Shown here: in pieces, positions 22,830 to 43,778 of the stretch | Position numbering within the stretch: the first letter of the stretch is position 1 | How the letters are laid out: the number at the start of each line of letters is the position of its first letter | Assembly: GCA_000004695.1 (NCBI GenBank) | Contig: CM000153.2 | Location: forward strand, 2,112,001-2,176,000 | Source: Dictyostelium discoideum | Taxonomy: Eukaryota | Direction of reading: 5' to 3' | Length of the DNA stretch: 64,000 nt | Position numbers and translations under genes: made by a program | Notes under the pieces: model-generated | What the model saw: only the letters and a program-made list of their open reading frames with translations | Told to the model about the DNA's origin: nothing | The model's database searches: none

Positions 22830-24505
22830 TTAATCTTCTTTGTTGACAATGTTATCACTATCTGTTTTTTCTTTTTCTTCTTTCTTTTCTTGTTCTTCAT
22901 TTTTTGTATCCTCTTTACTTTCTGTATTTATTTTTTCTTGTACCTCTTTGTTTTCTTCTTCTTTGTTTTCTACTTTATCATTTTTATTATCTTTTGTTTC
23001 TTCATTATCATTGTCGTCATCTTCGTTGTCATCATCATCATCTTCATCATCATCATCTTCTTCTTCATTATCATTATTATTTTCATTATTATTTTGAATT
23101 TGTTGAGTTTCTTGTTGTTGTTGTTCTTGTTGATTACCATAATAATAAGATTGAAAATATTGTTGAAGTTGTAATTTTTGATCATCAGAAAGTTTTGAAT
23201 AATCATAACCATAAGCTTGATAATATTGTTGCATATAGTTATCATATTGTTGTTTTTGAAGTTCTTGATTCATAGTACCAACAGAATGACTATAATAATT
23301 ACCAACACCATTTAAAGGTGCAACATCGACCGTTTCACCAGATTGTACTCTCTTTTGTAAATCATTGTTGTATTGTCTTGCATATGGGTGAGCTTCATAT
23401 TTAGTACTACCACGATATTGTAATTGATAAGGTGTCGAGGGGGATGCATTAATTGGTTGACCATTTTGGTCATATTGTTGATCAGTATTTGGATATTGAC
23501 CAGTCATTTGATATTTAAGAGCAGATTGATCATCTGGTGTCATCTCTCTAATTCTCTTATTTATAACCTCTGTTGCAACTCTATGTAAATTTCTTTCATC
23601 CACTTTTTTGGCATATGGATTCGAATCCTCTGTTGCCCATCTAATATTCAACAATTCACCATTATCCAATGTTTGATCTGTCATTGCCTCCTTGGCAAAC
23701 TCTGCTGACGATCTTGTTAAATATCTAACGAATGATATCGATCTATTAGTAATTACACGAACATATTCAATTCTACCCCATTCTTCAAAATTCTTTCTTA
23801 CCATATCTTCAAGTGATCCACTAACATTGGTTTTAATACCACCAATATATAATGCTATTTTATAAAATATTTAATTATATTAATAATAGTTTATTTAACA
23901 TATAATCAATATTTATTTATTTATTTATTTATTTATTACTTACTTCTATTATCTCTACTAAAACTACCAACACCATTCATATCGTCTCTGTCAGTTTTAT
24001 GTCTTTCTCTACCAAATATATCATGAGTTAATCTTAGACGTTTATCATCTTCAGGAGTTGGTATACGATGAAGGGATGTACAGTCGGCACCATTTATACA
24101 TTTACCCCTTGCAAAGTAACAACAGAAATTTGCGTCTTTATTAGCACGTGTTTTACCACAATCCTTTAAAACATTACATCTAGTCTCTGAAACATCTCTA
24201 TCTTTCCAATTTCTATTACCTAATTTCTTATGATACCATATATTGTATTCAGTGGTATCTGTATCATGATCTTCATATCTTGAATTTACATGTGTAGCTT
24301 GTTTTCTTGCTGGTCTATTCAATAATGATGCTTGTAATTCTATAATATCTGCTCCTACTTTAGTTAATCCGCTAGATTTTGGTTTTTTACTTTTCTTTTT
24401 ATCTTTTGTTGTTGCTGTTGTTGAGGTTGTTGTTGTAGTAGTAGTTGTATTTGGTGGTGTTGGTGTTATTGTATCTATTGATGATTTTTGTTTCTTTGAT
24501 GTCAT
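22830..24505 (-). CDS. cwc2: Pre-mRNA-splicing factor Cwc2 (CCCH zinc finger + RRM), 2 exons, acidic low-complexity tail
   Basis: Exon 1 is 23944-24505 (ORF 23936..24505: ...TTEYNIWYHKKLGNRNWKDRDVSETRCNVLKDCGKTRANKDANFCCYFARGKCINGADCTSLHRIPTPEDDKRLRLTHDIFGRERHKTDRDDMNGVGSFSRDNR then A|gtaagt). Exon 2 is 22830-23854 (acceptor aaaatag; T-LYIGGIKTNVSGSLEDMVRKNFEEWGRIEYVRVITNRSISFVRYLTRSSAEFAKEAMTDQTLDNGELLNIRWATED...). It is collinear with S. cerevisiae Cwc2 (NIWFNKW, TRCN.LKD, FCLFFAKG.C, LHHIPDEED, GIGSF, LYVGGI, AEFAKEAM.NQTL, VKWANED). Confidence 0.9.
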
Positions 24506-38483: not shown

Positions 38484-39005
38484 CTACTACTACTAATTCT
38501 GCTACTATTACTATCTACTATTATTTATTTATTTGATGAAGAACATACAGATGAAATTTTTTCGACAATTTCTTGTAATGATAATTTTAAGTTATATTTG
38601 GCATCATCCCAGGCAAATTGTTGAAGGTATTGTGGAATGGTGTGACCATTGATTGAAAGACTCTTATCTTTACCTGGTTTGGTTCCAACTAAATCGACTA
38701 ATTGTCTGGCAATCTTTTTGGTTGTAGATTCTACAATGGTATCGATTTTTTGTAATTCATCATTGAGTGTAATCAATGAATTGAGAGTACCAACTCTTAA
38801 TGCTGGTGTCTAAATTAATAAAAAAAATAAAAAATATAAAAAAATAAAAATAAAATTTTTAGTTAGTATTTTTTATGAAAAAAAAAAAAAAGATATTTAT
38901 TTAAACGAATAAAAAAAAAGAGAGAAGTTTTTTTGTGTGAAAAAAAAAAAAAAAAAAAAACAACAAATGAATAAAAAAAAAAAAAAATTATCGATAACTT
39001 TGTTC

Positions 39006-39055
<50 letters not shown>

Positions 39056-39203
39056 GTTATTATTATTAAATGAGTCTTACATTAAATTTTTTGTTTTCAG
39101 ATAAACTATTTTCTTTGGCAGTCTTTTGATTGACTTGGTCAAAAATGTCAGCACCTGGAAGGTTTGGAGCTGAAATTAACCAAAATTCTTGTGTTTCTGA
39201 CAT
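37008..39203 (-). CDS. vatC: V-type proton ATPase subunit C (V1 sector), 5 exons, about 368 aa
   Basis: Exon 1 is 39081-39203 ([41 protein letters not shown] then gtaaga). Exon 2 is 38549-38809 (TPALRVGTLNSLITLNDELQKIDTIVE...FAWDDAKYNLKLSLQEIVEKISS then gtatgt). Exon 3 is 37774-37961 (AVSKIDDDLKIKSSEYSTLSSSVASEERKASGNLQVRTLNDLITADNIVQTDYFTTAFVVIPK, phase 2). Exon 4 is 37489-37650 (QSEKEFLACYETISDFVLGRSAKRVAQDNDYFLYSVILFKKFYENFKTKIIEK). Exon 5 is 37008-37380 ([78 protein letters not shown]...YPYISVSVNWEN). It is collinear with human ATP6V1C1 ([79 protein letters not shown]). All splice phases are consistent. Confidence 0.93.
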
Positions 39204-39285
39204 TATCTATATATATATATATATGTAGTTTTTTATAAATGAAATAAATAAACAAAAATTTAATATGAAAAAAAAAAAAAAAAAA

Positions 39286-39321
<36 letters not shown>

Positions 39322-39889
39322 ATTTTTGAAACTTTTTTTTTTTAAAAAAAAAAAAAAAAAACATAAAAAATTAATTCCCTGGTCAATTTTGAGAGAGAGA
39401 GAAATTAAAAAAAAAAAAAAAAATCAAAAAAAAAAGAAAAAAAAAAAAAAGAAAAAAATATTTTTGGCCCAGAGTCAACAGGTTAACCTATGAAAGTATT
39501 TTAACCTTTTTTTTTTTATTTTTTTTTTTTTTTGTTTAAGTTTGATTAAATAAAATAAATTAAATCAAAAATATTAATTTTTTTTTTTTTTCTTTTTTTT
39601 TCTTTTTTTTCTTTTTTATTTTGTGTTTTTTTGTTTTGTGTTTTTTTGTTTTATTATTAATTTTTTATTTTTATCTTATTTTTTAAAATAAAATTGAATC
39701 ATTCGATTTTGTACTTTTTTTAAATAACTTTTTAAATTTTTTAAGATTTTTTTAATAAAATATGAATTTACATAAAGAAAAGATATTTCCATTTTAAGGC
39801 AGAATCATTTAATTCTGAAAAAAAAAATCCTTTTCTTGTTACCCCTTTTTCTTTTTTTTTTTTACTGAGATTTATTATAAATAATCTAA

Positions 39890-40477
39890 AACTACCACCA
39901 AAAACAACACAATCGAAAACACCATAACCAAATTTAGATTTAATAAGGAACAAAAACATCACAGCCACAACAAGACAAAACAAAATGGTACAAGAGAACT
40001 AACACAAAAAGCATGGATCTATTAAAGGTATACCCTATTGATTGGTGTCTTTACCTTTAATAATAGGTAAAATAGCGAGCTCATTCAAACACATATGGAA
40101 AAATGGAAAAATCTTTGGAACTGGCAATATTTATCCATCAGCACCAAACTACCACCTCTCGGCTACCTCAATCCACATAACCTGTAATGAAGCTTGCTTA
40201 AATCTCAAAACTTCTCCAACCACATACTTTGCAAACATCTACCAAAACTCAAAAGAATATATATATACCAACTTAATGACTTTAGCATACCCAGACTTCA
40301 ATGTATTGTGCCAGGCCCAAAATCTACTTTAAGAAATTTGCAAATCTCAACTCTGTGTGGTTTCGATTCCTTTCAATTCAATACCTTGTAAAAAAAAAGA
40401 AAAAAACTATAAATAAAATCAGAACAAGTATCTCAAGGAAAAGAGACTAATAATTGCATTATCCAATTAAATTGTCG

Positions 40478-40490
<13 letters not shown>
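39890..40490. other. About 600-bp island of reduced AT content with no credible ORF on either strand: candidate non-coding RNA gene or degenerate mobile-element remnant
   Basis: Composition switches abruptly from A/T homopolymer to a mixed sequence (ccacctctcggctacctcaatccacataacctg, ccaggcccaaaatctac). It contains a pol-III B-box-like motif GTGGTTTCGATTCC at about 40356-40369, but no tRNA cloverleaf can be folded around it. The only ORFs (40042..40332 and 40194..40391) are short, overlapping and unconserved-looking. Confidence 0.35.
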
Positions 40491-40519
<29 letters not shown>

Positions 40520-40620
40520 GAAAGTGATATTATTTATTTTATATATCAAAAAGAAAATAAAAATAAAATTTTTTTTGGAAAATTAAATTGATTGAAAAAA
40601 AATTTTAAATCTGACCAGGT

Positions 40621-40658
<38 letters not shown>

Positions 40659-40695
40659 TATTTTATTTTTAAATCTTTATTTAATTATTATTTTT

Positions 40696-43778
<3,083 letters not shown>

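Follow-up and report, generated by a model that had tools for sequence, protein, structure and literature searches.

The 64-kb stretch of Dictyostelium discoideum DNA analysed here (the window) is dictyostelid-type DNA, with extreme AT richness between genes and 72 homopolymer runs of A or T, each 20 nt or longer. One of its intergenic regions lies between the start codon of vatC (39203-39201) and the stop codon of a NOM1-like gene (40696-40698). vatC encodes V-ATPase subunit C on the minus strand, its first exon (MSETQEFWLISAP...) begins at 39203, and we take its gene identifier to be DDB_G028447x. The NOM1-like gene is a MIF4G/MA3 ORF at 40696-42267, also on the minus strand; its best database match is a D. 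purpureum protein (66% identity).

A first-pass annotation had pointed to an island of mixed composition between these two genes. The island is clearly visible as a GC-richer block at about 39866-40516, where the GC content in 200-nt windows is 0.32-0.36 against 0.09-0.15 in the flanks. The high-GC stretch covers about 39870-40400, and the block as a whole leads directly to a run of 39 A (A39). The plus strand of the island is rich in A and C (A 0.42, C 0.21, G 0.11, T 0.25). The island was scored in six frames with codon usage trained on the window's own long ORFs. All six frames are negative (-0.47 to -1.06 bits/codon), whereas the real coding segments of the window score +0.39 +/- 0.15 bits/codon with a minimum of +0.02; the island is therefore not a host-type exon. 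It had also been described as having no conserved-looking reading frame. That description does not hold, as what is left of a retrotransposon ORF2 can be recognised in the 96-codon frame at 40042-40332 and the frames next to it. The features of the island and its surroundings are collected in the table.

Table. Features of the island and its flanks in the window, and the tRNA genes beside the elements at the reference loci
Feature	Sequence	Position	Strand	Remarks
Copy A: diverged NOM1-like 3' end in duplicate (final ~50 codons plus stop)	window	39679-39810	-	5' side of the relic
5' truncation zone	window	39866-39890	+	includes TATA-like TATAAATA; ORF2 DNA and protein homology begins at ~39886-39891, only weak upstream
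ORF2-derived segment 1, decayed	window	39891-40031	+	one in-frame stop, 12-codon deletion
Perfect 11-bp inverted repeat TATTAAAGGTA / TACCTTTAATA	window	40020-40062	+	frameshifted junction of segments 1 and 2
ORF2-derived segment 2	window	40060-40311	+	within the 96-codon open frame
ORF2-derived segment 3, heavily decayed	window	40312-40390	+	carries the B-box-like motif (40357-40370)
3'-terminal C-module of the element	window	40391-40477	+	~87 nt; 80-87% identity to the C-modules of L002, L003, L004 and L005
A39 run at the oligo(A)-tail position	window	40478-40516	+	other copies end CCAATTCAA + A5-A17 at the same place
Copy B: functional 3' end of the NOM1-like gene	window	40692-40849	-	3' side of the relic; part of the 40696-42267 ORF
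tRNA-Val	L002	c1676-1750
tRNA-Thr	L003	c5819-5890		relic begins 61-62 bp away
tRNA-Asp	L004	c5102-5174
tRNA-Met	L005	c5670-5741

Remnants of an ORF2 and a C-module

A phmmer search of the 96-aa frame against 1.84 billion representative proteins gave three matches, P0121 (6e-9), P0122 (8.7e-9) and P0123 (2.5e-6). All are Dictyostelium proteins, and their source assemblies are D. cf. discoideum, D. citrinum and D. discoideum. P0121 (993 aa) matches RVT_1 (Pfam) at 3e-32. In its locus (L002), a 455-aa ORF lies upstream and a tRNA-Val gene is found on the opposite strand, just past the 5' side of the element. Ten more relatives were gathered, and the profile of this 13-protein family was run against the six-frame translation of the whole window. 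It found one significant place, 40069-40311 (i-E 5.9e-11).

Searched against the window by tblastn, P0121 aligns in two colinear blocks that lie in different frames (joint E 1.5e-15). Residues 635-693 match segment 1, where ...AQKAWIYERY stands against TQKAWIY*RY; P0126 and P0129 match the same segment as well, with 41% identity across 59 aa. Residues 697-777 match segment 2 at 40060-40302, and the identity of this segment to its ORF2 relatives is 42-52% at the amino acid level. The similarity extends to the DNA. By blastn, segment 2 is 72% identical over 234 bp to a 5'-truncated D. citrinum relic (L003, 5959-6188; E 1.4e-30). Segment 3 is recognised by DNA alignment to L003, L002 and L005, opposite the codons ...TPGQ..ILTAINRKHLPFIEIKKI..IKGRD.

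The 3' end of the block is 87% identical over 75 bp to L003 6851-6925 (E 8e-21), 87% over 60 bp to L002 7086-7145, and 80.5% over 118 bp to the TRE5-A-type C-module at L005 7499-7608. The 3' UTR of TRE5-A is composed of a B-module and a 137-bp C-module (PMC3159450). In L005, the C-module is preceded by the ORF2 stop, an A run and ~330 bp presumed to be the B-module. As 40391-40477 matches only the C-module part of this terminal layout, we assign it as a C-module. Nothing of the island matches the presumed B-module of L005 (7150-7480), a weak negative since the internal deletion described below covers the B-module position. The element terminus ...TTGCATTATCCAATT + (A)n is common to all copies compared. 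The other copies have a short A run after their terminal ...AATAAAATGAGA.C.AGCATCTCAAGGAGAAGCAACTAA.AATTGC.T.ATCCAATTCAA, and the window copy ends ...CCAATTAAATTGTCG + A39.

Several other searches were negative. A word-indexed protein search with the 96-aa frame gave no match, a Pfam search of six ORF fragments of the island gave nothing, and neither did a back-translated scan of JGI metagenomes. A full-text literature search for six 16-19-mers of the island found none of them. Degenerate relics of this kind elude simple word-based protein searches; here the exhaustive HMMER scan alone found the relatives.

We interpret the island as a dead, 5'-truncated, frameshifted and internally deleted plus-strand relic of a TRE5-family non-LTR retrotransposon, an identification that the sequence comparisons make very probable. 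The relic retains only the post-RT part of ORF2 (~500 bp), and the reverse transcriptase and endonuclease are missing. A T-run at 39845-39863 abuts its 5' edge; the D. citrinum relic in L003 has such a run at its 5' junction too. Relative to intact copies it has lost ~565 bp on the 3' side of segment 3. The spacing of the two matched blocks is 663 bp in L003 versus 90 bp in the window copy. The inverted repeat at the junction of segments 1 and 2 is absent from the relatives, and the alignments to L002 and L005 give extra bases at this place. The hairpin that it forms (dG about -13 to -15 kcal/mol, z about -2 to -3) is, judging from these alignments, an indel inside the relic. The best-preserved portion is the C-module.

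The relic would have arrived by target-primed reverse transcription, primed at the poly(A) end ~180 bp downstream of the NOM1-like stop, and would have decayed neutrally since then. Stem-loops in the C-module are needed for retrotransposition (PMC3159450). When the terminal 60 nt are folded to their consensus, two of the 12 pairs are disrupted, a defect confined to the window copy, which has left this constraint behind.

Subfamily, insertion context and flanking duplication

The relatives form two groups. The TRE5-A-type group consists of P0126 and P0128-P0131, with L005 as reference locus. The second group, with the motif NPSAPxYHLS and a short 3' UTR, consists of P0121, P0122, P0123 and P0125, with L002 and L003 as reference loci. 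The island carries YPSAPNYHLSATSIH and the C-module variants GAACAAG and TTGCAT, and therefore sorts with the second group. The C-modules of the second group (L002/L003) are 74-77% identical to the TRE5-A type. A value of 78% is reported for TRE5-A versus TRE5-C (PMC3159450). For the latter, all that is known in AX4 is a partial consensus of 879 bp (PMC5006619). From this comparison it appears plausible that the relic is TRE5-C-like. The subfamily, TRE5-B-like or TRE5-C-like, is not settled at the low identity (42-52% aa) to the available relatives.

In all four reference loci, the opposite strand carries a tRNA gene directly 5' of the element. This arrangement fits the TRE5 rule of insertion 37-95 bp upstream of tRNA genes (Table 1 of PMC5006619), and the family is therefore assigned as TRE5. 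The 5' end of a TRE5 element faces the 5' end of the tRNA gene (Table 1 of PMC5006619; PMC9012585), and the literature places all copies ~50 bp upstream of a tRNA gene (PMC9012585). In AX4, 4 of the 102 TRE5-A copies have no tRNA association (PMC5006619).

The relic does not occupy such a position. No tRNA gene was detected in the 64-kb window with ARAGORN (default and intron mode) or Rfam, and no other Rfam pol-III gene is present in it. The nearest possible tRNA or pol-III gene outside the window would be more than 39 kb away on one side and more than 23 kb on the other. There is also no B-box core (GTTCRANNC) within ~7 kb of the relic. The first-pass annotation had proposed a TRE-family module on the grounds that these elements target tRNA-gene neighbourhoods; with no tRNA gene in the window, this rationale is inapplicable here. 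The missing tRNA gene bears on the context of the insertion, not on the ancestry of the sequence.

The relic is bracketed by two direct copies of the 3' end of the NOM1-like gene. Residues of this duplication are clear in two places, 39679-39750 versus 40692-40764 (82%, E 1.8e-13) and 39771-39810 versus 40807-40849 (81%). The two stretches are colinear, each the reciprocal best hit of its partner within the window. Copy A is a pseudo-copy that reads NDSILF* where copy B reads NDSILL*, and nowhere else near the island is the host coding score non-negative. A global alignment carries the similarity over ~378 bp on each side, from the end of the A-tail to ~40895 and from ~39487 to the 5' edge of the relic. 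In this extension to the relic junctions, the outer parts are T-rich and of low complexity, and they score no better than controls. The duplication thus measures at least 130 bp and possibly ~378 bp, and no short target-site duplication is recognisable at the decayed junctions. For TRE5-A, target-site duplications of 10-16 bp are known (PMC9012585).

If the duplication reaches both junctions, it is a target-site duplication by definition. The simplest reading of the flanking duplication, at even chances or somewhat less, is a target-site duplication of unusual length. Rare atypical L1 insertions carry target-site duplications hundreds of bp long. Alternatively, the element inserted later into an older, independent tandem duplication. 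A comparison with D. purpureum showed different neighbours of the NOM1 ortholog and no similar sequence. We also considered the island itself as a degenerate NOM1-like coding copy from a tandem duplication with a ~1-kb unit. This was rejected, as the DNA score is at shuffle level and there are no protein matches.

A long target-site duplication would explain why the NOM1-like gene is intact despite a second-strand break inside its coding region. In the fullest form of this scenario, a TRE5 element inserted away from any pol-III gene, the second break fell ~380 bp from the first, within an essential-looking nucleolar MIF4G gene, and the insertion survived only because the oversized duplication regenerated the 3' end of the gene. 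Taken as a whole, this sequence of events is doubtful.

Some observations run against the TRE5 reading. The tRNA, pol-III and B-box context is missing, the duplication is at least 130 bp and not 10-16 bp, the identity to the relatives is low, and the A39 run carries little weight by itself, the window holding 72 A or T runs of 20 nt or more.

Present function and non-coding RNA readings

The relic is most likely inert. The C-module of TRE5-A acts as a weak minus-strand promoter and is bound by CbfA (C-module-binding factor; PMC3159450, PMC4559204). At this locus the minus-strand direction of the C-module points to vatC, about 1.2 kb away, and by analogy the C-module could at most have residual weak antisense-promoter or CbfA-binding activity towards this gene. 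A stronger proposal is that the relic or its C-module has been exapted, as a pol-II lncRNA, as a promoter or CbfA module of vatC, or as a terminator or insulator of the NOM1-like gene. In favour are the direction of the minus-strand promoter activity and the good preservation of the C-module. However, the C-module is better preserved between subfamilies too, so that selection at this locus is not implied, and the two consensus stem pairs broken in the window copy alone also speak against it, as does the absence of a local structure signal. Signals of the pol-II type are present, a TATA-like TATAAATA at 39873 and ATTAAA at 40467, but the TATA-like string falls in the uncertain 5' boundary zone and may derive from ORF2 codons, although homology there is weak. 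The GC content of the island (0.33) is high for its apparent age and far above that of D. discoideum lncRNA (17%) and intergenic DNA (13%) (PMC5295588). In the supplements of Rosengarten et al. (PMC5295588), no lncRNA model was found beside DDB_G028447x, the locus being matched through this presumed vatC identifier. Exaptation is very unlikely in our view, and the sequence provides nothing that would argue for retained activity of the relic.

The first-pass annotation had placed weight on a B-box-like motif without a foldable tRNA. The string GTGGTTTCGATTCC is present at 40357-40370, and at 40360-40370 it matches GGTTCGANTCC in 10 of 11 positions. In D. discoideum the B-box core is GTTCRANNC (Winckler laboratory), which alone occurs about every 7.5 kb (PMC5391098). 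G53 and C56 are essential, with mutation of C56 abolishing B-box function, and a functional A/B locus requires an A box (TRRYNNARYNG) 30-60 bp upstream (PMC5391098). The motif reads GTTTCGATTCC, with a T at the invariant G53 position or, equivalently, one inserted T, and because of this T in place of G53 it misses the core. The core itself occurs four times elsewhere in the window and is absent from the island. No strict A box is found 30-60 bp upstream of the motif; there is one permissive TNNNNNANNNG at 40330. The description as a close match to the B box thus extends to GGTTCGANTCC and fails at the core and the A box.

The position of the motif offers a simpler explanation. The stretch 40340-40390 is aligned in L003, L002 and L005 opposite the ORF2 codons ...INRKHLPF(I/E)(E/A)IKKI..IKGRD. 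Where the island has GGTTTCGATTCC, the relatives read CCTTCGAAGCGATC, CATTCATCGAGATT and CATTTAAAGAAATC, and the B-box-like string is missing in them. Since the motif is aligned to ORF2 codons and the relatives do not have such a string, its likeness to a B box is an accident of mutation in dead ORF2 coding sequence.

A locus of this kind could be a pol-III unit, a TFIIIC-bound A/B-box locus (like those of the rDNA palindrome and DDT-B) or a gene for a structured RNA (SRP, RNase P/MRP, snRNA/snoRNA or class I). D. discoideum is known to have A/B-box loci outside tRNA genes (PMC5391098, PMC9012585), and the 10/11 matches to GGTTCGANTCC number four in the window versus 0.28 expected. Against this reading are the failure of the core at G53, the lack of a strict A box at 30-60 bp and the ORF2 codons of related elements that align to the motif without a B-box-like string. 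As the first-pass annotation had stated, there is no foldable tRNA at the site. ARAGORN gave no tRNA-like fold at the island at 90% or 80% of its default thresholds, and no cloverleaf or SINE-like tRNA head at the motif down to 80%. At 70% it made two spurious calls, on the opposite strand and not including the motif. An Rfam search with permissive filters over 39300-40900 returned only two chance-level matches (E 3.3 and 6.8), both outside the island, where no match reached E <= 10, and nothing in the whole window reached the gathering score; the Rfam check that had been proposed for the island was therefore negative. The upstream sequence element of Dictyostelium ncRNA genes (DUSE; searched as [AT]CCCA[CT]AA) is not present within 38800-41000.

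The folding of the 591-nt block is also unremarkable, with z of +0.52 and +0.54 on the two strands relative to dinucleotide shuffles. Sliding windows of 70 and 110 nt have a mean z of +0.14, and their sole notable local feature is the 40020-40062 hairpin. A miRNA-like hairpin was considered and rejected, as global and local folding yield this one modest hairpin only, an indel in the relic. The pol-III and ncRNA readings are largely refuted by these results and are highly improbable. Of the options put forward in the first-pass annotation, the TRE-family module or transposon relic stands, and the structured pol-III or pol-II ncRNA falls with the negative Rfam, folding, DUSE and B-box tests.

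A processed pseudogene or captured DNA of non-transposon origin (mitochondrial, rDNA-palindrome, bacterial or plasmid) might account for a poly(A)-like run that ends the block after an ATTAAA and for a composition foreign to the surrounding intergenic DNA, but every significant match is to an ORF2-type protein or to the 3' end of an element beside a tRNA gene, blastn of the island found no match in plasmid or phage collections, Pfam shows no match to a host family, and D. discoideum is reported to have no processed pseudogenes (PMC3159450), so that this origin is barely conceivable.

The relic is a degenerate addition to the known TRE5 family whose insertion context is mildly atypical. A false lead is cleared, as the putative pol-III or ncRNA locus amounts to ordinary debris of a transposon; more generally, degenerate relics can be mis-scored as novel non-coding islands. 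An orphan old TRE5 copy in a gene-dense region bears on whether targeting alone, or targeting together with selection, shapes the distribution of these elements. If the orphan-insertion scenario were true, the relic would be physical evidence for a less than absolute targeting of TRE5 to tRNA genes, and the pattern of copies always upstream of tRNA genes would be partly shaped by selection. It would also be a rare case in which a dictyostelid non-LTR element made a very long duplication.

Comparison with known systems

The island resembles tRNA B boxes and the non-tRNA A/B-box loci (rDNA palindrome 18638/22168 and others; DDT-B) in having a string like GGTTCGANNCC outside a tRNA gene. It differs from them in that the core GTTCRANNC and an A box at 30-60 bp are absent, and the string is explained by decayed ORF2 codons.

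The relic also resembles atypical LINE insertions with long duplications. In these, as in the relic, the poly(A) end and the truncated 5' end are bracketed by direct copies of the target that far exceed the usual length for the family. The duplication around the relic is, however, old (~18-20% diverged), and its ends are not confidently mapped to the junctions.

The closest comparison is with the TRE5 family (TRE5-A = DRE, TRE5-B and TRE5-C). Unlike the reference TRE5 copies, the relic lacks a tRNA gene, both at 37-95 bp from its 5' end and in the rest of the 64 kb, and its flanking duplication of at least 130 bp contrasts with target-site duplications of 10-16 bp. It is far more diverged than the available copies and has the additional internal deletion of ~565 bp. 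TRE5-A has a B-module of ~290 bp in its 3' UTR, between the ORF2 stop and the C-module; the relic is without one, like the L002/L003 type. With the family, and in particular with 5'-truncated 3' relics such as the D. citrinum copy in L003 and with the TRE5-C class, the relic shares the C-terminal ORF2 motifs AQKAWIYERY, NPSAPxYHLS and HLPKLKxxY, a C-module ending in ...TTGCATTATCCAATT, the oligo(A) end and the 5' truncation.

The duplicated gene end and the internal inverted repeat

The last ~50 codons and the stop of the NOM1-like gene are present twice in the window, in direct orientation, at 39679-39810 (copy A) and 40692-40849 (copy B, the functional 3' end). The copies lie one on each side of the relic, the decayed TRE5-type fragment, with a spacing of ~1,013 bp, and have diverged to ~81-82% identity. 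Copy A is a pseudo-3'-end of the gene, ending NDSILF*. Within the relic, the frameshifted junction between its two ORF2 blocks is the site of a perfect inverted repeat (see table), which reaches ~17 bp if extended with a bulge, has a dG of ~ -13 to -15 kcal/mol and resembles a palindromic indel of local extent.

Features in the window and at the D. discoideum reference locus L004
Feature	Sequence	Position	Strand	Remark
Inverted repeat, perfect 11 bp	window	40020-40062		TATTAAAGGTA ... TACCTTTAATA, spacer 21 nt
Poly-asparagine/acidic-repeat coding region	window	43300-43640	-	exon 1 of NOM1-like gene
B-box core GTTCRANNC (n=4)	window	20659, 53297, 57310	+
		32393	-
10/11 match to GGTTCGANTCC	window	612	-
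10/11 match to GGTTCGANTCC	window	23617-23628		palindromic GATTCGAATCC
TRE5 C-modules	L004	5794-5864, 7248-7319
tRNA-Asp gene	L004	c5102-5174

The NOM1-like gene and B-box-like strings in the window

Towards its N-terminus, the NOM1-like protein carries a very long poly-asparagine tract of >40 N and acidic repeats, and the gene probably has an 86-nt intron (~43017-43102). In D. purpureum (locus L001, GL871611.1), the genes downstream of the NOM1 ortholog, at 4791-5720 of L001, are one of 63 aa and a Pyr_redox gene instead of vatC, so that the two species do not share the vatC-NOM1 adjacency.

The B-box core and 10/11 matches elsewhere in the window all fall within GC-richer, coding-like DNA. 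A strict A box was found upstream of none of the four core matches, and no tRNA was predicted at any of these core or 10/11 sites.

TRE5 copies beside tRNA genes

The protein set searched contains same-species transposon ORFs, while window-encoded proteins and nearly identical orthologs of these are missing or masked in it, so that the lack of a homolog for a window ORF carries less weight than it seems to. Decayed TRE5 ORF2 tails adjoin tRNA genes in D. citrinum (L003, 6001-6785) and D. discoideum (L004, 6001-6986; assembly GCA_054859355.1). In the new NCBI assemblies these tails are annotated as spliced 'hypothetical protein' genes, P0122 (197 aa) and P0123 (193 aa), gene models that are probably annotation artefacts. 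At L004, two tandem TRE5 C-modules lie upstream of a single tRNA-Asp gene, which indicates that TRE5 relics are stacked or nested at one target.
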